64,000 nt of DNA, taken from Eledone cirrhosa. Taxonomy: Eukaryota. Positions within the stretch are counted from its first letter, which is position 1. Every line of letters begins with the position of its first letter. Where the stretch lies: positions 8,742,001 to 8,806,000 of the forward strand of contig OZ024761.1 of NCBI GenBank assembly GCA_964016885.1. The letters are read 5' to 3'. Shown here in pieces: positions 24,967-64,000 of this stretch. The position numbers were made by a program, and so were the translations under genes. The notes beneath the pieces are model-generated. The model was given only the letters and a program-made list of their open reading frames with translations. It had not been told where the DNA came from and searched no databases.

Positions 24967-25008
24967 GATATTAAATAAATGGAAACTATATTTATAAAAC
25001 CATATTTA

Positions 25009-25070
25009 TTTCATTATATATATTTCAGGGATATCATATTAACAATATGTTATGCCTTCTTCAGACAAAA
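25009..25070 (-). ncRNA. Putative type I hammerhead ribozyme (degenerate) downstream of the Penelope ORF
   Basis: Minus strand reads TTTTGT-CTGAAGA-AGG..CCT-GAAA-TATATA-TA^ATGAAA; stem I has 2 GU pairs and stem III is palindromic. Confidence 0.55.
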
Positions 25071-26407
25071 TACAATATAGACAGTTTTATAGATAAATAG
25101 ATTTGACATACCGTTCAACATCGACTTGTATTTGAAAAAGTTGATTTGGCAGTGAAAAATTGTAAACAGAAAGAAAGAAAGAAAGAAAGAAGGAAAGAAA
25201 GAAAGAAAACGAAGAAAAAGAAGAAAAAAGAAGAAATGCATGCCACAAAATAGAGAGATGGAAAGATAGATAAAGAGAAGAACTTCATGTAAAGAAACAG
25301 AGAGAGATATATAGAGAGAGGAAATAGATAGAGATAGATATATATATAGAGAAAAAAGTAGGTAGTTGAACATCCGTTGAATGACGTATCAATGATACAT
25401 TTATTTATTTATTTATTTATTTAGCTCTAGTATTAATGTAAGGGAGATATATGTGGTTAGGAAAGAAACCAGCCGTTATATAGAGAGAAAAATGAAAAGT
25501 AACCAGACATAGGCGAGGCAGAATTTAAAAACCCTATGTTTTAATGTAGAAATATTAGTTCGTATAAAAACCAGGCACCATAATGTAAATATCAGTATTC
25601 CTGAATGAGACACGTATCCATAATGTGTGAAAAGTAATGATCTTATGTCTAGTTTTAAAAATTCATATGTTTATATGATAACTACAAACATCGATGTGAA
25701 TTTACGTGATCAACTCTGCAAACCCCTATTTCACACGGAGAACATTCTCATTGTGCTATAAAAATTTAAGTATACATATATGTGTATATATACACATATA
25801 TATAGAGTCTATATTAATTTTAACAATACTATTCTTGTCTTTACTCTACATGATTATCTATCAAGCAGAAATAGAGAACAGATTTCAATATATTAATAAA
25901 AAATAAAAAATATCAGAAACAAAAACAAAAAAATAATAATAATAATAATAATAAACAAATAAATAAAATAGAAAACTAAAAAATATTACATATTAAAAAT
26001 AAAATATTAAAAATATTAAAAATATTAAAATAATAAAAATAAAATGCCACGCAAGTCGACCACAAAGATCAACCCTTCAAAATTAATTGACAATATATTG
26101 CCAAGTTCATTATAAGCATCAGAGTCGAAAATAGATAAAGCTAAAAATTATTTACCAAATCGCGTCTAGCAGAAATCATTTCAAAAGTTTAGGATGCCCA
26201 TTTGGTCTACATATATTCTTATATTTAATATAGAAGTTTATCTAGTGTAACGTTTATTCGATATATTTGGAGCATCAACTTTTAGGGTAGTTTAATTTTC
26301 CTGAAGAATGTTTAAGATAAAAATAAAAATAAAAAGAAGAATAAAAAGAAGAAATCGAAAGATTTATCGGCTAGTTTCCCAAATAATTACAAATCAAACT
26401 AAATATA

Positions 26408-27595
26408 CTACATTTTAAATTTAAATTTATATTTAAAAGTTGAGTTCAATCTATGTTTGCAGCAACTGAATAAATTTGTCCGTAGATTAAGGGAATTTTT
26501 AGATTTTAGTATAAAGAATATCTCCTCCGCGCAGAGGTCACATGTCTCAGAGGATGAATTAAAAGGAATCCCTCTTGAGACTATATTCCAAGCCGTCGAA
26601 TATCTAACGTTATCTTGCCTAAGTTGCCAGAGTACGCCTGATAGTGCTGTTGAAGATTTTTTGCTTGGATCTGTGAAAGAATTCTTGTGGTTATTATAGC
26701 GAAGTTTAAATTCCGTCGATGTGGAACCGACGTAGTTAAAAGAATTAGAGTCCGTTTTAACATTACAGTTGTATATTATATTTTTAACTAAGCAGTTGTT
26801 ATTTAACGGACATTTAGATCTATCTCTAGAGTTACATTTGTTAACTTGTATATTATTTATGCTATTATCGCTAGGTTTTAAGTTCCTATTATTTATTCTA
26901 TTAATATTTGTGCTAAATTTTTGGTGGATGAGTAGGTTAATTTTATAGTATGTCTATTGAAAATTGAGTGATACCTATGTGTTCTAGGGAAGCGATTATC
27001 AAGAGCTTTAAAAAATAGTTTAGCGATGTGGGTTTTAATGTTTAGTGAGAAAGGGGGGGCAAACCATATTATGTTCCTAGTTCTATTTCTTTTTTGGCTT
27101 TTGGAATTATTGTAATGCTTTCTATTATAGTTGTTAAGGTTGTGGCCCGTAATTAAAATAGTTGTTATTTTGTTTAGTTTGTCTATCATTATCTATGTAC
27201 ATAATCTTATCACTATATCCTGCTCTAGCTAACGCTTCATTGTAGTACTGGGCTTTTTCGTCGAAAATCTTTCTATTAGACGAGATTCTAGAGATACGTT
27301 TTTGAACAGAGTTTACTATAGTGTTTTTGACAGATCTGGGGTGGTTAGAGTTAAAGCTGACATAGTTTGAGTTTTCATTCAACTTGTGAAATGGATAGTG
27401 AAGACATGTGTTGAGATTTAATGTTATATCTAGGAAATTGACTATTCTATGGTTGTTCTCAATTTCTATTTTTAGATTAAAGTAATTAAAAAATTTTGTA
27501 ATTTGTTTTCTTTTTCTATTTAGTTCAGAGTTATTATTATCAATAAGTAAAAGCATGTCATCTCTATATAAACCTCCGGTAGTACCAGGTATTTC
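26408..27595 (-). mobile_element. Penelope-like retroelement, 5'-truncated: RT C-terminal half, thumb/linker and GIY-YIG endonuclease, with 2 frameshifts
   Basis: GLYRDDMLL (RT catalytic motif), [41 protein letters not shown], then CPLNNNCLVKNIIYNCNV..YVGSTSTEFKLRYNNHKNSF..CDLCAEE..CCKH; stop at 26408-26410. Confidence 0.9.
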
Positions 27596-27612
27596 CTATG
27601 TAGCGAATTGAT

Positions 27613-27756
27613 TAAAAATAGAGAACAACCATAGAATAGTCAATTTCCTAGATATAACATTAAATCTCAACACATGTCTTCACTATCCATTTCACAAGTT
27701 GAATGAAAACTTAAACTATGTCAGCTTTAACTCTAACCACCCCAGATCTGTCAAAA
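27613..27756 (+). mobile_element. Inverted duplication of Penelope RT segment 27325-27475
   Basis: Near-perfect reverse complement (GAGAACAACCATAGAATAGTCAATTTCC..CCCCAGATCTGTCAAAA). Confidence 0.92.
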
Positions 27757-28336
<580 letters not shown>

Positions 28337-28643
28337 TAAATTGAAACAAAATGAAAACGTAATTTCATTTCTCACTCTTAGTATGGCACTTACTTAAATG
28401 TAAGTATGCATGTATACGTACATACATATATGTATACAGACGTACAGTAGCATGCACATATATATATATATATACATATATATATACATATGCATACAGG
28501 TACACATACATATATGCACGTATCAGTTTAGCGGCGCTAACGTCGCTTTGTTCGTTTGTAAACAAACTGAACAGCCTGAATTTATGCCATACGGTGTTAA
28601 GGCAACCACGTCACCTTTTTGTTCAACACTGACACAGGAACGA
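28337..28643 (-). repeat. Inverted partial copy of the 465-bp unit
   Basis: Reverse complement of unit sequence; forms a ~280-bp-arm palindrome with 28645-28922. Confidence 0.93.
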
Positions 28644-29040
28644 GGGTGACGTGGTTGCCTTAACACCGTATGGCATAAATTCAGGCTGTTCAGTTTGTTT
28701 ACAAACGAACAAAGCGACGTTAGCGCCGCTAAACTGATACGTGCATATATGTATGTGTACCTGTATGCATATGTATATATATATGTATATATATATATAT
28801 ATGTGCATGCTACTGTACGTCTGTATACATATATGTATGTACGTATACATGCATACTTACATTTAAGTAAGTGCCATACTAAGAGTGAGAAATGAAATTA
28901 CGTTTTCATTTTGTTTCAATTTATCGTTTTCGGTATGCCTGACCGATTTAACTCACTCAATATGCAAATTAGGCTGCTCAGCCGTTAATTTTCATAAGGA
29001 AAGTATATACTTTCGAACGTTCAACTATCTGGCAGATGGT

Positions 29041-29086
29041 AAACGGTGCTGATGATAGCTAACAAGCTTGAAACTAGTACATCGTT
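29041..29086 (+). ncRNA. Type I hammerhead ribozyme, copy 1
   Basis: AACGGTG-CTGATGA-T-AGCT-AACA-AGCT-T-GAAAC-TA-GTA^CATCGTT; stem I AACGGTG/CATCGTT; palindromic ACTAGT stem III; predicted cut after 29079. Confidence 0.82.
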
Positions 29087-29505
29087 CCTGTGTCAGTGTT
29101 GAACAAAAAGGTGACGTGGTTGCCTTAACACCGTATGGCATAAATTCAGGCTGTTCAGTTTGTTTACAAACGAACAAAGCGACGTTAGCGCCGCTAAACT
29201 GATACGTGCATATATGTATGTGTACCTGTATGCATATGTATATATATATGTATATATATATATATATGTGCATGCTACTGTACGTCTGTATACATATATG
29301 TATGTACGTATACATGCATACTTACATTTAAGTAAGTGCCATACTAAGAGTGAGAAATGAAATTACGTTTTCATTTGTTTCAATTTATCGTTTTCGGTAT
29401 GCCTGACCGATTTAACTCACTCAATATGCAAATTAGGCTGCTCAGCCGTTAATTTTCATAAGGAAAGTATATACTTTCGAACGTTCAACTATCTGGCAGA
29501 TGGGT

Positions 29506-29551
29506 AAACGGTGCTGATGATAGCTAACAAGCTTGAAACTAGTACATCGTT
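29506..29551 (+). ncRNA. Type I hammerhead ribozyme, copy 2
   Basis: Identical motif; predicted cut after 29544. Confidence 0.82.
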
Positions 29552-29971
29552 CCTGTGTCAGTGTTGAACAAAAAGGTGACGTGGTTGCCTTAACACCGTA
29601 TGGCATAAATTCAGGCTGTTCAGTTTGTTTACAAACGAACAAAGCGACGTTAGCGCCGCTAAACTGATACGTGCATATATGTATGTGTACCTGTATGCAT
29701 ATGTATATATATATGTATATATATATATATATGTGCATGCTACTGTACGTCTGTATACATATATGTATGTACGTATACATGCATACTTACATTTAAGTAA
29801 GTGCCATACTAAGAGTGAGAAATGAAATTACGTTTTCATTTTGTTTCAATTTATCGTTTTCGGTATGCCTGACCGATTTAACTCACTCAATATGCAAATT
29901 AGGCTGCTCAGCCGTTAATTTTCATAAGGAAAGTATATACTTTCGAACGTTCAACTATCTGGCAGATGGGT

Positions 29972-30017
29972 AAACGGTGCTGATGATAGCTAACAAGCTT
30001 GAAACTAGTACATCGTT
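29972..30017 (+). ncRNA. Type I hammerhead ribozyme, copy 3
   Basis: Identical motif; predicted cut after 30010. Confidence 0.82.
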
Positions 30018-30253
30018 CCTGTGTCAGTGTTGAACAAAAAGGTGACGTGGTTGCCTTAACACCGTATGGCATAAATTCAGGCTGTTCAGTTTGTTTACAA
30101 ACGAACAAAGCGACGTTAGCGCCGCTAAACTGATACGTGCATATATGTATGTGTACCTGTATGCATATGTATATATATATGTATATATATATATATATGT
30201 GCATGCTACTGTACGTCTGTATACATATATGTATGTACGTATACATGCATACT

Positions 30254-30257
<4 letters not shown>

Positions 30258-30350
<93 letters not shown>

Positions 30351-30364
30351 ATATATATATATAT

Positions 30365-30462
<98 letters not shown>

Positions 30463-30549
30463 ATATATATATATACATGTATATATATATATACATGTAT
30501 ATATATATATATATATATACATGTATATATATATATATATATATACATG

Positions 30550-30581
<32 letters not shown>

Positions 30582-30738
30582 CATGTATATATATATATAC
30601 ATGTATATATATATATACATGTATATATATATATATATATACATGTATATATACATATATATATACATATATATATACATGTATATATACATATATATAT
30701 ACATATATATATACATATATATATACATATATATATAC

Positions 30739-30773
<35 letters not shown>

Positions 30774-30800
30774 CATGTATATATATATATATATATATAC

Positions 30801-30869
<69 letters not shown>

Positions 30870-31003
30870 CATGTATATATATATATATATATACATGTAT
30901 ATATATATATATATACACATATATATATATATACATGTATATATATATATATATACACATATATATATACATGTATATATATATATATATACATGTATAT
31001 ATG

Positions 31004-31053
<50 letters not shown>

Positions 31054-31575
31054 CATGTATATATATATATACATGTATATATATATATACATGTATATAT
31101 ATATATACATGTATATATATATATACATGTATATATATATATATATACATGTATATATATATATATACATGTATATATATATATATACATGTATATATAT
31201 ATATATACATGTATATATATATATATACATGTATATATATATATATACATGTATATATATATATATACATGTATATATATATATATACATGTATATATAT
31301 ATATATACATGTATATATATATATACATGTATATATATATATACATGTATATATATATATACATGTATATATATATATACATGTATATATATATATACAT
31401 GTGTATATATATATACATGTATATATATATACATGTGTATATATATATACATGTATATATACATGTATATATATGTATATGCATGTATATATATGTATGT
31501 ATATATGTATATGTATGTATATATATATGTATATGTATGTATATATGTATGTATATGTATATGTATGTGTATATG

Positions 31576-31608
<33 letters not shown>

Positions 31609-32407
31609 ATATGTATATGTATATATATGTATGTATATGTATGTATATATATGTATATGTATGTATATGTATGTATATATATGTATATGTATGTATATAT
31701 ATGTATATGTATGTATGTATATATATGTATATGTATGTATATATATGTATATGTATGTATGTATATGTATATGTATGTATATGTATGTATATATATATGT
31801 ATGTATATATATATGTGTATGTATATATATATGTGTATGTATATATATATGTGTATGTATATATATATGTGTATGTATATATATATGTGTATGTATATAT
31901 ATATGTGTATGTATATATATATGTATATATATATGTATATGTATATATATATGTATATGTATATATATATGTATATATATGTGTATGTATATGTATATAT
32001 ATGTGTATGTATATGTATATATATGTGTATGTATATGTATATATATGTGTATGTATATGTATATATGTGTATGTATATGTATATATGTGTATGTATATGT
32101 ATATATATGTGTATGTATATGTATATATATGTGTATGTATATGTGTATATATATGTGTATGTATATGTGTATATATATGTGTATGTATATGTATATATAT
32201 ATGTGTATGTATATGTATATATATATGTGTGTATGTATATGTATATATATGTGTATGTATATATATATATATATGTGTGTGTATATGTATATATATATAT
32301 ATGTGTATGTATATGTATATATATATATATGTGTATGTATATGTGTATGTATATGTATATATATATGTGTATGTATATGTATATATATATATATGTATAT
32401 ATATATG

Positions 32408-32440
<33 letters not shown>

Positions 32441-33138
32441 GTGTATATATATATATGTGTATATATATATGTGTATGTATATGTATATATATATATATGT
32501 GTATGTATATGTATATATATATATATGTGTATGTATATATATATATATATGTGTATGTATATGTATATATATATATGTGTATGTATATGTATATATATAT
32601 ATATGTGTATGTATATGTATATATGTGTATGTATATGTATATATATGTGTATGTATATGTATATATATATATATGTGTATGTATATGTATATATATATAT
32701 ATGTGTATGTATATGTATATATATATATATGTGTATGTATATGTATATATATGTGTATGTATATGTATATATATGTGTATGTATATGTATATATATGTGT
32801 ATGTATATGTATATATATATATATGTGTATGTATATGTATATATATATATATATGTATGTATATGTATATATATGTGTATGTGTGTATGTATATGTATAT
32901 ATATATATATGTGTATGTATATGTATATATATATGTGTATGTATATGTATATATATATGTGTATGTATATGTATATATATATGTGTATGTATATGTATAT
33001 ATATATATGTGTATGTATATGTATATATATATATATATGTGTATGTATATGTATATATATATGTATATGTATATATATATATGTATATGTATGTATATAT
33101 ATATGTATATGTATGTATATATATATATGTATATGTAT
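30258..33138. repeat. Compound (TA)n/TACATG/TATG microsatellite
   Basis: Direct inspection. Confidence 0.97.
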
Positions 33139-33978: not shown

Positions 33979-34414
33979 GTATGTATATATATATGTATAT
34001 GTATGTATATATATTTCGTTTCTGAATTTGTTTAGCAAGATTCTTTATCTGAAATCGTGTGTTGAAACCGATATTGTTATACTTTGGGAGGGTCATGTTG
34101 CCAATAAGAAACACACGCACCAGTTGCTTTCACTTCAATTTAATTTATTATATATTTATAAATTTACAAATTTATAAATTTCTGGTTGGTTGGTTGGTTC
34201 CACAACCAGATAGTTGTTTATATATATATAGTCATAGTTCTTTCGTCACACACTCTGTGACCTCTTCAGTGACTGGGGATTTCTTTCTTCGTTTCTGTGC
34301 CTTTCCTTTCTTCTATCTATCCTACGCCATTTTGGCGTAGGATATACAAACTAAGGAAAAAATTATGTATTTTGTTAGAGGTGCCTACTGACTGTAGTTG
34401 GTTTCACTTTGCAC

Positions 34415-36772: not shown

Positions 36773-36968
36773 TAATATAGAAGGTGAGTAATATTGTAGA
36801 ACAATAAAACTATGCATATATCAGATAAGTAGCACTCAACAGTTGGTAGAACTGGAGTATATATAATAAAGATGAAATAAAAGATGGTTATAAGAGTTCC
36901 ATATATTTATGTAGACTTTGCACTTTCCTATAAACAAGTGCTATTATGCCTCATATGATGTTACCTTC

Positions 36969-37034
36969 TTTTATCTGAAGAGAACACAATTTCTGTCCCA
37001 GGATGATTTTGTATTCGAAATGCGCATAATAAAA
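36969..37034 (+). ncRNA. Type I hammerhead ribozyme inside an inverted repeat
   Basis: TTTTAT-CTGAAGA-GAACACAA..TTGTATTC-GAAA-TGCGCA-TA^ATAAAA; perfect stem I; palindromic ATGCGCAT stem III. Confidence 0.75.
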
Positions 37035-37199
37035 TATATGGAACTCTTATAACCATCTTTTAATTTCATTTTTATTATATATATAGACATATATATAATT
37101 AATACAAAAGGAAAATGAAGAATATTATTTAAATTCCATCTATAGTTTCTACAATTATTTCGATGGTGATAAATGTGGCATGTATATATATATATATAT

Positions 37200-38752: not shown

Positions 38753-39661
38753 ACACATTAGTATTTACATTACTCTATATATACTATTGTATTTTCATGG
38801 TAAAGGCTTTACCTCACATAACATTTACATTACTCTATATATACTATTGTATTTTCATGGTAAAGGCTTTACCTCACATAACATTTACATTACTCTATAT
38901 ATACTATTGTATTTTCATGGTAAAGGCTTTACCTCACATAACATTTACATTACTCTATATATACTATTGTATTTTCATGGTAAAGGCTTTACCTCACATA
39001 ACATTTACATTACTCTATATATACTATTGTATTTTCATGGTAAAGGCTTTACCTCACAACATTTACATTACTCTATATATACTATTGTATTTTCACGGTA
39101 AAGGCTTTACCTCACATAACATTTACATTACTCTATATATACTATTGTATTTTCACGGTAAAGGCTTTACCTCATAACATTTACATTACTCTATATATAC
39201 TATTGTATTTTCATGGTAAAGGCTTTACCTCACATAACATTTACATTACTCTATATATACTATTGTATTTTCATGGTAAAGGCTTTACCTCACATAACAT
39301 TTACATTACTCTATATATACTATTGTATTTTCACGGTAAAGGCTTTACCTCACATAACATTTACATTACTCTATATATACTATTGTATTTTCATGGTAAA
39401 GGCTTTACCTCACATAACATTTACATTACTCTATATATACTATTGTATTTTCACAGTAAAGGCTTTACCTCACATAACATTTACATTACTCTATATATAC
39501 TATTGTATTTTCACAGTAAAGGCTTTACCTCACATAATATCGAATCTTTGAGATTTTGACATTATTTATTTTGAGAACACTACCTTAATGTAGGTATGAG
39601 GAGCTAGCTATAGCCAATTTCAACAGAAAAAGGTGAGAGAATTCTGGCCGGATATGGCCGG
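38753..39661 (+). repeat. piggyBac-type MITE with an internal 60-bp unit expanded ~13 times
   Basis: Unit ACATTTACATTACTCTATATATACTATTGTATTTTCATGGTAAAGGCTTTACCTCACATA, followed by the rest of the MITE seen at 52252-52459. Confidence 0.85.
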
Positions 39662-39665
39662 TTAA

Positions 39666-40376
39666 CCCTTTAGCATTCAAACCGGCCGTGTTCGGCCAGA
39701 TTCTCTCACCTCTTTCTGTTCAAACCAGCCATAACCAGCTGCCCATACTAATGTTAAGGTAGTGTTCTTAAAATAAATAATATAAAAATCTCAAAGATTC
39801 GATGTTATGTGAGGTAAAGCCTTTACCGTGAAAATACAATAGTATATATAGAGTAATGTAAATGTTATGTGAGATATTATGTAAGATAAAGTCTTTACCA
39901 TGAAAATACAATAGTATATATAGTGTAATGTAAATGTTATGTGAGATACTATGTAAGATAAAGTCTTTACCATGAAAATACAATAGTATATATAGTGTAA
40001 TGTAAATGTTATGTGAGATACTATGTAAGATAAAGTCTTTACCATGAAAATACAATAGTATATATAGTGTAATGTAAATGTTATGTGAGATACTATGTAA
40101 GATAAAGTCTTTACCATGAAAATACAATAGTATATATAGAGTAATGTAAATGTTATGTGAGATATTATGTAAGATAAAGTCTTTACCATGAAAATACAAT
40201 AGTATATATAGTGTAATGTAAATGTTATGTGAGATATTATGAGAGGTAAAGCCTTTACTGTGAAAATATAATAGTATATATAGAGTAATGTAAATGTTAT
40301 GTGAGATACTATGTAAGATAAAGTCTTTACCATGAAAATACAATAGTAAATATAGTGTAATGTAAATGCTAAAGGG
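39666..40376 (-). mobile_element. Complete piggyBac-type MITE with an internal ~72-bp expansion
   Basis: TTAA|CCCTTTAGCATT...AATGCTAAAGGG|TTAA termini. Confidence 0.88.
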
Positions 40377-40965
40377 TTAACTCAGTATTCCCTTTTGTCT
40401 AGAATGGATTTAGGGAAGGATAACTGGGGTGTGTCCTTTTTCCCTTTAGGATCTCTTGTCGATCGGACATGAAGGTTAATAATTCTCTTCTAACTCGAGC
40501 AGGAGTGCCTTTCCATTGTCAATTTGGATTGATCATCTGCAAAGCCATATTGTTCTCAGAACCACTACACCAGTCTTTCGATGCGTGAAGCTGGAACTAC
40601 TGGCACCCATTGATTTGGCAGGATTTTTTTTTTTTTTAGATAGCCATTGACTCTTATGAGTTCTTCCGCCCTTTGTCAGGTTTTGCTTTTTGTCCTGCAG
40701 GGTGTCCAAAATAAACCTCATCACCAAGTAAACTTGGTGGAGTTGCCAGTTTAGTCGCCGATAACCCGACCATGCGACAGGTTGTACTGGGTTACATGTT
40801 ACCAGTAGTACTTGAGAGTGATCTGACATAAATAATGTGTTGATTAGCTGCTTCAGTTTATAAAAAGGGTTTGGATTTTTGCTCATTTCTCAGACATAAA
40901 CTAAAGGGGGTCAACGTATATCCGAGTATATAGGGTATATATAAAGTGTGTGTATGGGTACTTAC

Positions 40966-49806: not shown

Positions 49807-49953
49807 GTGAGTTGCTTCGTTTGTTTTTAGGGTTTTTTCTTTCTTTCCCTCGCCCCTAATCTACACTCGCTTTTTCTACTGTATTTTTTAATATTGTATT
49901 TGCTTAAGGTATTCTTCGAGTAATTGAGCGAATGGTAAAATAGGGGCACCACC

Positions 49954-50532
49954 AAGCTATTAGCTGTCAGAAGTGAAAGTTTCGTCAACCTTCTCAATCG
50001 TAAACATCCTTTATTTCCGTATTACCACGCGTTATTTTAATAAAGCATATCGATGTAAGTGGAGTTACTTAAATGAAATTATAGGTGCCCCTTAAAAGGG
50101 CCAAATTAGAAAACAAATATATGGTTATCAAATTTTTTTCACCAACCCTATACATAAATAACCATGACTTGTTTTCTAATTAACTTAAATTTGTTTTCTA
50201 ATTTGGCCCTTTTAAGGGCCACCTCCTATATTTTCATTTAAGTAACTCCAATTACATCGATATGCTTTATTAAAATAACTGTTTCTACTTTAGGCACAAG
50301 GCCAGCAATTACCCAGTGCATTACTGGTACTTTATTTTATCGACCTCGTAAGGATGAAAGGCAAAGTCAACCTCAGCGGGATTTGAACTCAGATCGTAAA
50401 GGGACGTAACTATGCTGGAAAGCATGGCGTCCGACCCTCTACCGATACTGCCAAACTCGTGTTAATACGGAAATAAACGATGTTTACGATTGAGAAGGTT
50501 GACGAAACTTTCACTTCTGACAGCTCATAGCA
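49954..50532. mobile_element. Foldback/MITE-like palindrome with a family B SINE (-, 50280-50455) inserted in the right arm
   Basis: 49954-50028 is the inverse of 50458-50532, and 50030-50120 is the inverse of 50190-50279. Confidence 0.8.
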
Positions 50533-50719
50533 TGATAGTGCCAAAATAGGTAGAGTAGATTAGTTGGTGGAATTTAATCTTATATATGTCTTCCACTATA
50601 CATTCTTCATTCAATACTGTAGTTTTATCTAGTGCGTTGTGTGTTGATGTTCTCTCTCTTTCACTCGCTATCCACATCTCTCACTGTTCTCATCTCTCAC
50701 TGTTATAAGCAAATGGGAA

Positions 50720-56084: not shown

Positions 56085-56262
56085 ATGCTTGCATGGGTTG
56101 GGCAGGTCCTTCTCAGCACAGCATCTCTCTATTCGCTGCATTCCTTCGTCATCTCCTCCGTGAGTCTCAGATCAGCTCTCACCACCATTGCCCATGTCTT
56201 CCTTGGTCTACCTCTACTCTGGCTTCACTCAATTCACTGCATTCCTTCGTCATCTCCTCTGC
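56085..56262 (-). mobile_element. RTE LINE C-terminal/3' fragment
   Basis: Minus strand reads RGRPRKTWAMVVRADLRLTEEMT..PTHAS. Confidence 0.7.
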
Positions 56263-59200
56263 GAGTCACAGTAATTTGAGGTCACCTCTCACCAGCAGGA
56301 GTCACAGTAATTTGAGGTCACCTCTCACCAGCACAAGTCACAGTAATTTGAGGTCACCTCTCACCAGCACGAGTCACAGTAATTTGAGGTCACCTCTCAC
56401 CAGCACGAGTCACAGTAATTTGAGGTCACCTCTCACCAGCAGGAGTCACAGTAATTTGAGGTCACCTCTCACCAGCACGAGTCACAGTAATTTGAGGTCA
56501 CCTCTCACCAGCACGAGTCACAGTAATTTGAGGTCACCTCTCACCAGCACGAGTCACAGTAATTTGAGGTCACCTCTCACCAGCACGAGTCACAGTAATT
56601 TGAGGTCACCTCTCACCAGCACAAGTCACAGTAATTTGAGGTCACCTCTCACCAGCAGGAGTCACAGTAATTTGAGGTCACCTCTCATCAGCAGGAGTCA
56701 CAGTAATTTGAGGTCACCTCTCATCAGCAGGAGTCACAGTAATTTGAGGTCACCTCTCACCAGCACAAGTCACAGTAATTTGAGGTCACTTCTCACCAGC
56801 AGGAGTCACAGTAATTTGAGGTCACTTCTCATCAGCACGAGTCACAGTAATTTGAGGTCACTTCTCATCAGCACGAGTCACAGTAATTTGAGGTCACCTC
56901 TCACCAGCACAAGTCACAGTAATTTGAGGTCACCTCTCACCAGCACGAGTCACAGTAATTTGAGGTCACCTCTCACCAGCACGAGTCACAGTAATTTGAG
57001 GTCACCTCTCACCAGCACGAGTCACAGTAATTTGAGGTCACCTCTCACCAGCACGAGTCACAGTAATTTGAGGTCACCTCTCACCAGCACGAGTCACAGT
57101 AATTTGAGGTCACCTCTCACCAGCACGAGTCACAGTAATTTGAGGTCACCTCTCACCAGCACGAGTCACAGTAATTTGAGGTCACCTCTCACCAGCACAA
57201 GTCACAGTAATTTGAGGTCACCTCTCACCAGCACAAGTCACAGTAATTTGAGGTCACTTCTCATCAGCAGGAGTCACAGTAATTTGAGGTCACCTCTCAT
57301 CAGCACAAGTCACAGTAATTTGAGGTCACCTCTCACCAGCACGAGTCACAGTAATTTGAGGTCACCTCTCACCAGCACGAGTCACAGTAATTTGAGGTCA
57401 CTTCTCATCAGCAGGAGTCACAGTAATTTGAGGTCACTTCTCATCAGCACGAGTCACAGTAATTTGAGGTCACTTCTCATCAGCAGGAGTCACAGTAATT
57501 TGAGGTCACTTCTCATCAGCAGGAGTCACAGTAATTTGAGGTCACCTCTCACCAGCACAAGTCACAGTAATTTGAGGTCACTTCTCACCAGCAGGAGTCA
57601 CAGTAATTTGAGGTCACCTCTCATCAGCAGGAGTCACAGTAATTTGAGGTCACTTCTCATCAGCAGGAGTCACAGTAATTTGAGGTCACTTCTCATCAGC
57701 AGGAGTCACAGTAATTTGAGGTCACTTCTCATCAGCACAAGTCACAGTAATTTGAGGTCACCTCTCATCAGCACAAGTCACAGTAATTTGAGGTCACTTC
57801 TCATCAGCAGGAGTCACAGTAATTTGAGGTCACCTCTCATCAGCACAAGTCACAGTAATTTGAGGTCACTTCTCATCAGCAGGAGTCACAGTAATTTGAG
57901 GTCACCTCTCACCAGCACGAGTCACAGTAATTTGAGGTCACTTCTCATCAGCAGGAGTCACAGTAATTTGAGGTCACCTCTCATCAGCACAAGTCACAGT
58001 AATTTGAGGTCACTTCTCATCAGCAGGAGTCACAGTAATTTGAGGTCACTTCTCATCAGCACAAGTCAGAGTAATTTGAGGTCACCTCTCATCAGCACAA
58101 GTCACGTAATTTGAGGTCACTTCTCATCAGCACAAGTCACAGTAATTTGAGGTCACCTCTCATCAGCACAAGTCACAGTAATTTGAGGTCACTTCTCATC
58201 AGCAGGAGTCACAGTAATTTGAGGTCACCTCTCACCAGCACGAGTCACAGTAATTTGAGGTCACTTCTCATCAGCAGGAGTCACAGTAATTTGAGGTCAC
58301 CTCTCATCAGCACAAGTCACAGTAATTTGAGGTCACTTCTCATCAGCAGGAGTCACAGTAATTTGAGGTCACCTCTCATCAGCACAAGTCACAGTAATTT
58401 GAGGTCACCTCTCATCAGCACAAGTCACAGTAATTTGAGGTCACTTCTCATCAGCACAAGTCACAGTAATTTGAGGTCACCTCTCATCAGCACAAGTCAC
58501 AGTAATTTGAGGTCACTTCTCATCAGCAGGAGTCACAGTAATTTGAGGTCACCTCTCATCAGCATAAGTCACAGTAATTTGAGGTCACTTCTCATCAGCA
58601 GGAGTCACAGTAATTTGAGGTCACCTCTCATCAGCACGAGTCACAGTAATTTGAGGTCACCTCTCATCAGCACAAGTCACAGTAATTTGAGGTCACTTCT
58701 CATCAGCACAAGTCACAGTAATTTGAGGTCACCTCTCATCAGCACAAGTCACAGTAATTTGAGGTCACTTCTCATCAGCAGGAGTCACAGTAATTTGAGG
58801 TCACCTCTCATCAGCACAAGTCACAGTAATTTGAGGTCACTTCTCATCAGCAGGAGTCACAGTAATTTGAGGTCACCTCTCATCAGCACGAGTCACAGTA
58901 ATTTGAGGTCACCTCTCATCAGCACAAGTCACAGTAATTTGAGGTCACTTCTCATCAGCACAAGTCACAGTAATTTGAGGTCACCTCTCATCAGCACAAG
59001 TCACAGTAATTTGAGGTCACTTCTCATCAGCAGGAGTCACAGTAATTTGAGGTCACCTCTCATCAGCACAAGTCACAGTAATTTGAGGTCACTTCTCATC
59101 AGCAGGAGTCACAGTAATTTGAGGTCACCTCTCATCAGCACGAGTCACAGTAATTTGAGGTCACTTCTCATCAGCAGGAGTCACAGTAATTTGAGGTCAC

Positions 59201-62200
59201 TTCTCATCAGCAGGAGTCACAGTAATTTGAGGTCACCTCTCATCAGCACAAGTCACAGTAATTTGAGGTCACTTCTCATCAGCAGGAGTCACAGTAATTT
59301 GAGGTCACCTCTCATCAGCACAAGTCACAGTAATTTGAGGTCACTTCTCATCAGCACAAGTCACAGTAATTTGAGGTCACTTCTCATCAGCAGGAGTCAC
59401 AGTAATTTGAGGTCACCTCTCATCAGCACAAGTCACAGTAATTTGAGGTCACCTCTCATCAGCACAAGTCACAGTAATTTGAGGTCACCTCTCACCAGCA
59501 CAAGTCACAGTAATTTGAGGTCACTTCTCATCAGCAGGAGTCACAGTAATTTGAGGTCACCTCTCACCAGCACGAGTCACAGTAATTTGAGGTCACCTCT
59601 CACCAGCACAAGTCACAGTAATTTGAGGTCACCTCTCACCAGCACGAGTCACAGTAATTTGAGGTCACCTCTCACCAGCACGAGTCACAGTAATTTGAGG
59701 TCACCTCTCACCAGCACGAGTCACAGTAATTTGAGGTCACCTCTCACCAGCACAAGTCACAGTAATTTGAGGTCACCTCTCACCAGCACAAGTCACAGTA
59801 ATTTGAGGTCACTTCTCATCAGCAGGAGTCACAGTAATTTGAGGTCACCTCTCATCAGCAGGAGTCACAGTAATTTGAGGTCACCTCTCACCAGCACGAG
59901 TCACAGTAATTTGAGGTCACCTCTCACCAGCACAAGTCACAGTAATTTGAGGTCACTTCTCATCAGCAGGAGTCACAGTAATTTGAGGTCACTTCTCATC
60001 AGCAGGAGTCACAGTAATTTGAGGTCACTTCTCATCAGCAGGAGTCACAGTAATTTGAGGTCACTTCTCATCAGCACAAGTCACAGTAATTTGAGGTCAC
60101 CTCTCATCAGCACAAGTCACAGTAATTTGAGGTCACTTCTCATCAGCAGGAGTCACAGTAATTTGAGGTCACCTCTCATCAGCACAAGTCACAGTAATTT
60201 GAGGTCACTTCTCATCAGCAGGAGTCACAGTAATTTGAGGTCACCTCTCACCAGCACGAGTCACAGTAATTTGAGGTCACTTCTCATCAGCAGGAGTCAC
60301 AGTAATTTGAGGTCACCTCTCATCAGCACAAGTCACAGTAATTTGAGGTCACTTCTCATCAGCAGGAGTCACAGTAATTTGAGGTCACTTCTCATCAGCA
60401 CAAGTCAGAGTAATTTGAGGTCACCTCTCATCAGCACAAGTCACGTAATTTGAGGTCACTTCTCATCAGCACAAGTCACAGTAATTTGAGGTCACCTCTC
60501 ATCAGCACAAGTCACAGTAATTTGAGGTCACTTCTCATCAGCAGGAGTCACAGTAATTTGAGGTCACCTCTCACCAGCACGAGTCACAGTAATTTGAGGT
60601 CACTTCTCATCAGCAGGAGTCACAGTAATTTGAGGTCACCTCTCATCAGCACAAGTCACAGTAATTTGAGGTCACTTCTCATCAGCAGGAGTCACAGTAA
60701 TTTGAGGTCACCTCTCATCAGCACAAGTCACAGTAATTTGAGGTCACCTCTCATCAGCACAAGTCACAGTAATTTGAGGTCACTTTTCATCAGCACAAGT
60801 CACAGTAATTTGAGGTCACCTCTCATCAGCACAAGTCACAGTAATTTGAGGTCACTTCTCATCAGCAGGAGTCACAGTAATTTGAGGTCACCTCTCATCA
60901 GCACAAGTCACAGTAATTTGAGGTCACTTCTCATCAGCAGGAGTCACATTAATTTGAGGTCACCTTTCATCAGCACGAGTCACAGTAATTTGAGGTCACC
61001 TCTCATCAGCACAAGTCACAGTAATTTGAGGTCACTTCTCATCAGCACAAGTCACAGTAATTTGAGGTCACCTCTCATCAGCACAAGTCACAGTAATTTG
61101 AGGTCACTTCTCATCAGCAGGAGTCACAGTAATTTGAGGTCACCTCTCATCAGCACAAGTCACAGTAATTTGAGGTCACTTCTCATCAGCAGGAGTCACA
61201 GTAATTTGAGGTCACCTCTCATCAGCACGAGTCACAGTAATTTGAGGTCACCTCTCATCAGCACAAGTCACAGTAATTTGAGGTCACTTCTCATCAGCAC
61301 AAGTCACAGTAATTTGAGGTCACCTCTCATCAGCACAAGTCACAGTAATTTGAGGTCACTTCTCATCAGCAGGAGTCACAGTAATTTGAGGTCACCTCTC
61401 ATCAGCACAAGTCACAGTAATTTGAGGTCACTTCTCATCAGCAGGAGTCACAGTAATTTGAGGTCACCTCTCATCAGCACGAGTCACAGTAATTTGAGGT
61501 CACTTCTCATCAGCAGGAGTCACAGTAATTTGAGGTCACTTCTCATCAGCAGGAGTCACAGTAATTTGAGGTCACCTCTCATCAGCACAAGTCACAGTAA
61601 TTTGAGGTCACTTCTCATCAGCAGGAGTCACAGTAATTTGAGGTCACCTCTCATCAGCACAAGTCACAGTAATTTGAGGTCACCTCTCATCAGCACAAGT
61701 CACAGTAATTTGAGGTCACTTCTCATCAGCAGGAGTCACAGTAATTTGAGGTCACCTCTCATCAGCACAAGTCACAGTAATTTGAGGTCACCTCTCATCA
61801 GCACAAGTCACAGTAATTTGAGGTCACTTCTCATCAGCAGGAGTCACAGTAATTTGAGGTCACCTCTCATCAGCACAAGTCACAGTAATTTGAGGTCACT
61901 TCTCATCAGCAGGAGTCACAGTAATTTGAGGTCACCTCTCATCAGCACAAGTCACAGTAATTTGAGGTCACCTCTCATCAGCACAAGTCACAGTAATTTG
62001 AGGTCACTTCTCATCAGCAGGAGTCACAGTAATTTGAGGTCACCTCTCATCAGCACAAGTCACAGTAATTTGAGGTCACTTCTCATCAGCACAAGTCACA
62101 GTAATTTGAGGTCACTTCTCATCAGCAGGAGTCACAGTAATTTGAGGTCACCTCTCATCAGCACAAGTCACAGTAATTTGAGGTCACCTCTCATCAGCAC

Positions 62201-64000
62201 AAGTCACAGTAATTTGAGGTCACCTCTCACCAGCACAAGTCACAGTAATTTGAGGTCACTTCTCATCAGCAGGAGTCACAGTAATTTGAGGTCACCTCTC
62301 ATCAGCACAAGTCACAGTAATTTGAGGTCACTTCTCATCAGCAGGAGTCACAGTAATTTGAGGTCACTTCTCATCAGCAGGAGTCACAGTAATTTGAGGT
62401 CACCTCTCATCAGCACAAGTCACAGTAATTTGAGGTCACCTCTCATCAGCACAAGTCACAGTAATTTGAGGTCACTTCTCATCAGCAGGAGTCACAGTAA
62501 TTTGAGGTCACCTCTCATCAGCACAAGTCACAGTAATTTGAGGTCACTTCTCATCAGCAGGAGTCACAGTAATTTGAGGTCACCTCTCACCAGCACAAGT
62601 CACAGTAATTTGAGGTCACTTCTCATCAGCAGGAGTCACAGTAATTTGAGGTCACCTCTCATCAGCACAAGTCACAGTAATTTGAGGTCACTTCTCACCA
62701 GCACAAGTCACAGTAATTTGAGGTCACTTCTCATCAACAGGAGTCACAGTAATTTGAGGTCACCTCTCATCAGCACAAGTCACAGTAATTTGAGGTCACC
62801 TCTCATCAGCACAAGTCACAGTAATTTGAGGTCACCTCTCACCAGCACGAGTCACAGTAATTTGAGGTCACCTCTCATCAGCAGGAGTCACAGTAATTTG
62901 AGGTCACCTCTCATCAGCACAAGTCACAGTAATTTGAGGTCACCTCTCATCAGCACAAGTCAGTAATTTGAGGTCACCTCTCATCAGCACAAGTCACAGT
63001 AATTTGAGGTCACCTCTCATCAGCACAAGTCACAGTAATTTGAGGTCACCTCTCACCAGCACAAGTCACAGTAATTTGAGGTCACCTCTCATCAGCACAA
63101 GTCACAGTAATTTGAGGTCACCTCTCACCAGCACAAGTCACAGTAATTTGAGGTCACCTCTCATCAGCACAAGTCACAGTAATTTGAGGTCACTTCTCAT
63201 CAGCAGGAGTCACAGTAATTTGAGGTCACCTCTCATCAGCACAAGTCACAGTAATTTGAGGTCACCTCTCATCAGCACAAGTCACAGTAATTTGAGGTCA
63301 CTTCTCATCAGCAGGAGTCACAGTAATTTGAGGTCACCTCTCATCAGCACAAGTCACAGTAATTTGAGGTCACTTCTCATCAGCACAAGTCACAGTAATT
63401 TGAGGTCACTTCTCATCAGCAGGAGTCACAGTAATTTGAGGTCACCTCTCATCAGCACAAGTCACAGTAATTTGAGGTCACCTCTCATCAGCACAAGTCA
63501 CAGTAATTTGAGGTCACCTCTCATCAGCACAAGTCACAGTAATTTGAGGTCACCTCTCATCAGCACAAGTCACAGTAATTTGAGGTCACTTCTCATCAGC
63601 AGGAGTCACAGTAATTTGAGGTCACTTCTCATCAGCAGGAGTCACAGTAATTTGAGGTCACCTCTCATCAGCACAAGTCACAGTAATTTGAGGTCACTTC
63701 TCATCAGCAGGAGTCACAGTAATTTGAGGTCACTTCTCATCAGCAGGAGTCACAGTAATTTGAGGTCACCTCTCATCAGCACAAGTCACAGTAATTTGAG
63801 GTCACCTCTCATCAGCACAAGTCACAGTAATTTGAGGTCACTTCTCATCAGCAGGAGTCACAGTAATTTGAGGTCACCTCTCATCAGCACAAGTCACAGT
63901 AATTTGAGGTCACTTCTCATCAGCAGGAGTCACAGTAATTTGAGGTCACCTCTCACCAGCACAAGTCACAGTAATTTGAGGTCACTTCTCATCAGCAGGA
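56263..64000. repeat. 36-bp minisatellite (>210 copies, runs off the window)
   Basis: Unit AGTCACAGTAATTTGAGGTCACYTCTCAYCAGCASR. Confidence 0.97.

Follow-up and report, generated by a model that had tools for sequence, protein, structure and literature searches.

A tandem array of 466-nt repeats in the window (the whole 64-kb stretch of DNA that was analysed) is preceded by an inverted copy of the repeat that begins 2 nt from the predicted cleavage site of a hammerhead ribozyme. We give an even chance to the account that the locus is a recent insertion of the hammerhead repeat into a TA satellite, made in trans by the RT of a Penelope-like element (PLE), and that its left arm was copied off the end of a self-cleaved RNA. 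The class of the element and the layout of the insertion are already known.

Structure of the insertion

Positions in the unit were numbered from the predicted hammerhead cut, +1 being the first base on its 3' side. Read on the minus strand from 28643, the sequence is that of the unit from +3 (TCGTTCCTG...), and it runs to 28336 (+310) with zero mismatches over 308 nt (Table 1). This exact match bears out the preliminary description, which had placed the start of the inverted copy 2 nt from the predicted cut. If the G at 28644 is taken to be complementary to +1, +2 being lost, the arm reaches the predicted scissile bond; its end thus lies 0–2 nt from this bond. In the forward array, the predicted 3' cleavage products start at 29080, 29545, and 30011, with periods of 465, 465, and 466 nt. 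Two 1-nt homopolymer indels are the sole differences between units and are all that sets the five pieces of the locus (28336–30258) apart. Set against the diversity of the family, this near-identity points to one recent event and one source RNA.

The spacer of the palindrome consists of +3 to +30, and the arms diverge beyond +310. The whole insertion, comprising the inverted arm and 3.5 forward units, is embedded in (TA)n-type satellite, and no target-site duplication is readable at either of its outer ends. The locus thus has the anatomy of a PLE-type insertion: an inverted, 5'-truncated copy joined head-to-head, and a (TA)n target. According to the available sections of PMC8557442 and PMC3846280, both features are typical of PLEs; together with the neighbouring PLE described below, these sources support the earlier statement that the inverted-plus-tandem layout is Penelope-typical. 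The chance that one of the two inner breakpoints falls within a 3–5-nt window of the 466-nt unit is 1.3–2.1%, or 4.2% with all four ends counted, each figure referring to a single case (n = 1) chosen post hoc.

Table 1. Features of the insertion, the neighbouring PLE, and the second hammerhead-associated palindrome.
Feature	Position	Strand	Description
Decayed, 5'-truncated PLE	24970–27612	−	RT YRDD motif to GIY-YIG-type endonuclease remnant; long 3' UTR; ends approximate
Predicted type I hammerhead at 3' end of neighbouring PLE	25007–25072	−	Predicted cut after 25015; beside satellite
Inverted arm of neighbouring PLE	27613–27756	+	141/144 identical to 27468–27325; break mid-RT, unrelated to any ribozyme
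Left flank, (TA)n/TACATG satellite	27757–28335		3–4-nt microhomology to unit +310
Inverted arm	28336–28643	−	Unit +3 to +310; 308/308 identical to forward units
Junction base	28644–28644		Single extra G; head-to-head, without microhomology
Tandem array, non-LTR retrozyme by sequence	28645–30258	+	~3.5 units of 465/466 nt, +31 to +248
Predicted type I hammerhead, copy 1	29042–29086	+	Predicted cut after 29079
Predicted type I hammerhead, copy 2	29507–29551	+	Predicted cut after 29544; U-U at stem II base
Predicted type I hammerhead, copy 3	29973–30017	+	Predicted cut after 30010
Right flank, TA-rich satellite	30259–33138		5-nt microhomology to unit +248
Second case, inverted arm	36858–36910	−	Other hammerhead family; starts at +1 to +4 of predicted cut, ends at +55 in (TA)n
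Second case, forward arm	36911–37083	+	Predicted hammerhead 36969–37034, cut after 37028; ends at the same +55

The predicted hammerhead

In each unit, the hammerhead motifs are CUGAUGA, GAAA, and GUA; stem I has 7 bp, stem II is short, and stem III is palindromic (ACUAGU). All elements of the type I core (CUGANGA, GAAA, NUH, and stems I–III) are present. With its 2-bp palindrome, stem III is dimer-type, a layout described in the available part of PMC4209133. The hammerhead descriptor gave six matches in the 64-kb window versus 0.01 per block-shuffled window. Against Rfam, the motif reached a weak HH9 match (18.5 bits versus a gathering score of 52; E = 0.057), there was no match at gathering level, and the G10.1-C11.1 pair is replaced by U-U. 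Since minimal PLE-type motifs depart from the canonical form (PMC4209133, same part), the low score and the U-U lower the predicted activity of the motif more than they do its identity. The free fold of the ribozyme is ordinary (z = −0.85). Self-cleavage by the motif is a prediction.

The repeat family

One unit (29795–30135) matched 4214 contigs (X1), 55 contigs (X4), and 91,046 reads (X22) in organism A and had 36 matches (X5) in organism B. Many of the 4214 contigs match at 90–99% identity, and their number is not a copy number. The repeat is thus a dispersed, multi-copy family. The 40 variants listed, of 132, fall at 37 distinct places. The 12 nucleotides of the core are free of them (P = 0.25, weak). 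Those inside the ribozyme lie in N7, loop II, and stem I; in one of them G-U has become A-U, and in another it has likely been swapped to U-G. The pattern of the ribozyme was not found in the metagenome contigs searched.

The locus has three consecutive units, each a few hundred base pairs long and with a type I hammerhead, in a region of ~0.31 GC, and the unit has no ORF on direct reading. In sequence terms, the element is a non-LTR retrozyme as defined in the available text of PMC7229834 and bioRxiv 10.64898/2026.07.22.740005. It is not an autonomous EN+ PLE, which would have an RT plus GIY-YIG ORF between pLTRs: the array is bounded by satellite and is not similar to the neighbouring PLE. 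Judged by eye, a loose end in one X4 contig resembles +286 to about +310 followed by (TA)n; based on this end, +310 may be a recurrent priming site.

Breakpoints in the family were located in X22, a set of RAD reads from another individual, for which 15 of 110 joints were listed. The read ends pile up at AATT, which points to a SphI/MluCI-type digest. Thirteen of the 15 listed joints change strand; one of these is a restriction-site chimera, and the other 12 fit head-to-head geometry. The count of 12 leaves out the 29825/30077 joint and two 'skip' joints, all three excluded beforehand. The 12 strand-switch joints lie away from AATT and are covered by 46–119 reads each, and in seven of the nine for which both ends could be placed, the short side matched its prediction exactly. 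Read-end piles and AT-rich loose ends were considered as real breakpoints and rejected, as they occur at AATT sites and are digest or ligation products.

None of the 12 head-to-head junctions found among the 15 listed joints has an arm at +1 to +3, the nearest being at +9 and +18. Under two visibility models and the inferred enzymes, this bounds the share of cut-site junctions at ~8–36%. The inferred digest is unable to reveal the +3/+31 junction itself, and this junction was also absent among the matches listed for the contig searches. Ten of the 21 located RAD breakpoints lie 31–59 nt upstream of the cut (29952–29980; unit +408 to +436). Six of these ten are forced by library geometry, and four of the six other junctions are there as well.

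The neighbouring PLE

The decayed PLE on the left lies in the same satellite as the array and has broken frames at 26408–27595. Its RT piece with the YRDD motif is 37% identical to P0001, and its endonuclease piece has 1616 relatives, with E values up to 1e-10. The element contains the CxxC and CxH motifs, a linker with one Cys changed, and the 3' hammerhead; both CxCX5C and DKT are present in P0001, the full-length homologue of the element. The available text of PMC8557442 gives a C-terminal EN, a CxCX5C linker, CxxC and CxH motifs, and a DKT motif as features of the Hydra clade and states that this clade inserts in (TA)n and carries hammerheads. The motifs of the neighbouring PLE therefore appear Hydra-clade-like. 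Pfam gave no match in three pieces of this PLE and nothing relevant in P0001.

The 466-nt unit has no detectable similarity to the UTR of the neighbouring PLE, which is accordingly a candidate type of helper and not a proven source. The inverted arm of this PLE is joined head-to-head yet breaks mid-RT, so the layout is ordinary PLE anatomy for which a ribozyme is not needed. The window search found no inverted arm for the hammerhead at 25015.

Other hammerheads and repeats in the window

A search of the window for other hammerheads, run after the cleavage hypothesis had been set, found three families in addition to that of the 466-nt unit. One of them, unrelated to that of the unit, provides a second case of an inverted arm near a predicted cut. 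Of four scoring schemes, three place the start of this arm at +1 or +4, and the fourth stretches a poor gapped match to −11. The arm appears to be essentially the predicted 3' cleavage product. We estimate the chance of such a start (+1 to +4) at ~2–5%. Thus, both window arms that start <500 nt from the hammerhead of their own family (2/2) begin ≤4 nt from the cut. The whole of 36858–37083 resembles a solo pLTR.

The fourth hammerhead family (34014–34360, minus strand; core 34269–34235) lies inside what appear, by eye, to be LINE RT remnants. A short palindrome occurs in this element near 34319–34345, and the window search found no inverted arm for the hammerhead at 34235. The segment 54467–54700 is a head-to-head palindrome (87%) that ends in (TA)n and is related to the 3' part of the 34235 element; it has no hammerhead, so the start of its arm cannot be set against a cut site.

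The window contains other repeats. A 36-nt satellite (56262–63997; 215 copies) has CTGATGA on the minus strand, followed by a small hairpin and AAA; it has no stem I and is not matched by the hammerhead descriptor. Two related satellite arrays, of 60-nt and 72-nt units, lie in inverted orientation at 38763–40380. The element at 49945–50542 is a nested, MITE-like inverted repeat into which a short interspersed repeat has been inserted.

Inverted arms in related PLE loci

Contigs from metagenomes and MAGs yielded 82 PLE loci that are related. Using a looser hammerhead descriptor, plus-strand matches were detected in 51 of these loci and minus-strand matches in two. Seven loci have a clear 5' inverted arm; six of these arms begin in the ORF and one at −152, so that none of the seven starts at the cut site. 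One unclear locus (L010) and one with a 3'-side inversion (L056) were excluded from the seven. The arm duplicates sequence within the body in the neighbouring PLE and in six of the seven related loci. No relative was found in the viral contigs searched.

Among ~19 repeats at contig edges, the starts at +2 (L036) and −5 (L071) were dismissed as due to assembly edges or chance, as was a match of 15 nt that L024 has at +1 in inverted orientation. A 281-nt spaced pair of hammerheads on the minus strand of one locus (L078:2628–2988) adjoins the 3' end of the PLE and is likely a retrozyme of another animal. Four loci (L079, L080, L081, and L082) are PLEs in records of prokaryote genomes, probably reflecting host contamination; L080 lies within a 491-kb contig.

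Pooling the out-of-sample junctions gave one arm at the cut site in 21. Under assumed chance rates, the best estimate of the share of cut-site arms is ~1%, with an upper bound of ~18%, and the likelihood ratio is ~1.0 versus no effect. There is thus no clear enrichment.

Origin of the inverted arm

The locus could have arisen in the following way. The endonuclease of a PLE would nick both strands of (TA)n, and each end would prime a cDNA. The right cDNA, primed at +248, would go 3.5 times round an RNA that is circular, or along an uncleaved multimer, and stop at +31; the left cDNA, primed at +310, would copy a linear, cleaved RNA up to its 5'-OH end (+1 to +3). The 3' ends of the two cDNAs would then be joined head-to-head with one extra base. 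In vitro, both strands of the target are cut and then extended by a PLE protein, as described in the available sections of PMC11167929. The same sections report that the hammerhead of Anolis Poseidon is dispensable in vitro and that no RNA-seq reads end at the hammerhead site.

The exact arm from +3 to +310, the 1-nt junction without microhomology, and the second arm at 36858–36910 count for a copy that ended at a cleaved RNA. Counting against are the absence of cut-site arms among the 12 family junctions and the seven related loci, the mid-RT arm of the neighbouring PLE, and the U-U in stem II, as well as the passage of the long arm through three intact ribozymes. On balance, a footprint of cleavage at 28336–28643 is plausible from the sequence, with the arguments for and against about level. 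The preliminary description had proposed a cDNA that ran to the end of a self-cleaved RNA; the second case speaks for this part, but as a general rule it does not hold, given the 12 junctions and seven relatives. Cut-site endings would be at most a minority route, with most arms stopping elsewhere. If such a route exists at 5–10%, the junction at 28643 very probably belongs to it.

The main rival leaves the same PLE-made retrozyme insertion in place and takes +3 as an ordinary truncation on uncleaved RNA, by chance or because the RT stalled in stem I. This reading is a serious contender that we place somewhat below even. An RT stalled in stem I would stop almost where the arm starts, with no cleavage involved. 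The 3' strand of stem I is +1 to +7, and both window cases (+3 and +1 to +4) lie inside it. Moreover, the listed family breakpoints are scattered, one of them (+9) adjoining the base of stem I, PLE arms begin anywhere, as in the neighbouring PLE and the related loci, and the pooled likelihood ratio is ~1.0. Against this, the two window arms near their own hammerhead both begin ≤4 nt from the cut, either junction allows a reading in which +1 was reached and 1 nt lost, and a stalled RT should have stopped closer to +7/+8, its point of entry into the helix.

In another reading, proposed for PLEs in the available text of PMC3846280, +3 is not an RNA end: a long first-strand cDNA folded back, primed itself at +3 in one of the earlier units, and was extended by 308 nt. 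The complete identity of the inverted arm to the forward units agrees with such self-priming, as does the repetition of body sequence in the arms of the neighbouring PLE and six of the seven related loci. We regard it as improbable: the end of the long arm has no microhomology to the sequence preceding +3, a loop of at least 436 nt would be required, and a fold-back of the short arm is limited to +310. A fold-back into the tandem array had been suggested earlier, as an alternative to a template switch. A short arm folding back on itself cannot yield 3.5 units, so the joining of two separate cDNAs fits better, and as a fold-back of the long arm would lack microhomology, two cDNAs, one per target end, are the simplest account. 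Finally, a perfect palindrome in low-complexity DNA, whose +3/+31 junction is absent among the matches listed for X1, X4, X5, and X22, could be an assembly or long-read fold-back artefact, a concern already raised in the preliminary description. This is very improbable. The arms are asymmetric, the left one ending in satellite where the right one goes on, and another part of the unit supplies the spacer; comparable head-to-head junctions occur in Illumina reads (46–119 each); and two further such structures with diverged arms are present in the window.

The available text of PMC8557442 calls it unclear whether hammerheads of PLEs and retrozymes cut in cells and whether the cut RNA serves as template. 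A broader proposition, that inverted arms of hammerhead PLEs and retrozymes in this genome are often complete 3' self-cleavage products extending from the cut site to the start of reverse transcription, seems doubtful to us; if true, the genome would preserve, in fossil form, where minimal hammerheads of the dimer type cleaved in vivo, and one insertion would have drawn on both a cleaved linear RNA and a circle. Were arms across the genome to start at the cut in excess, this would be direct and cheap evidence of cutting in cells and would support the mobilisation of retrozymes by PLEs. The locus at 28336–30258 suggests such a test without settling the question of cleavage.

Comparison with known systems

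The literature covered, which includes few subscription papers, contained no paper tying the starts of inverted arms in PLEs or retrozymes to the hammerhead cut. In their available sections, PMC8557442 and PMC3846280 do not tie arm starts to a ribozyme cut, and that of PMC13282606 does not mention ribozymes.

As in the non-LTR retrozymes of animals described in the available text of Cervera and de la Pena (2020, PMC7229834) and Li et al. (bioRxiv 10.64898/2026.07.22.740005), the element is a tandem unit, apparently low in GC and non-coding, with one type I hammerhead each and a short palindromic stem III, occurs as several consecutive units at high copy number, and co-occurs with PLEs. The likeness is one of DNA sequence. 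At 466 nt, the unit is slightly longer than the 150–450 bp of PMC7229834 and falls within the 51–972 bp of the bioRxiv study. It also has an inverted arm, which is mentioned neither in the main text of PMC7229834 nor in the available part of the bioRxiv study.

The locus shares the 5' head-to-head inverted arm and the (TA)n target with EN+ PLEs, including the Hydra clade, as described in the available sections of Craig et al. (2021, PMC8557442) and Arkhipova et al. (2013, PMC3846280). As in the Hydra clade, a hammerhead lies upstream of the 3' end, and the neighbouring element has Hydra-type motifs. Unlike these PLEs, the 466-nt unit has no ORF on direct reading, and it has no detectable similarity to the UTR of the neighbouring PLE.

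In the twin priming of L1, two target ends each prime a cDNA, and joining of the cDNA ends produces a 5' inversion. The present insertion differs in lacking a poly(A) and a TSD, in arms that overlap by 280 nt, and in a template that would be multimeric or circular.

In R2, as described in the available part of Eickbush et al. (2013, PMC3774820), the ribozyme is HDV-like, the 28S target is fixed, and the junction is direct. Its link between ribozyme and junction is the rule and was tested in vitro, whereas that of the 466-nt unit is a minority at most and predicted. What the two have in common is a genomic junction at the ribozyme cut: the 5' junctions of R2 track the cut with bases added or lost, and the inverted arm described here likewise meets its predicted cut with bases extra or missing.
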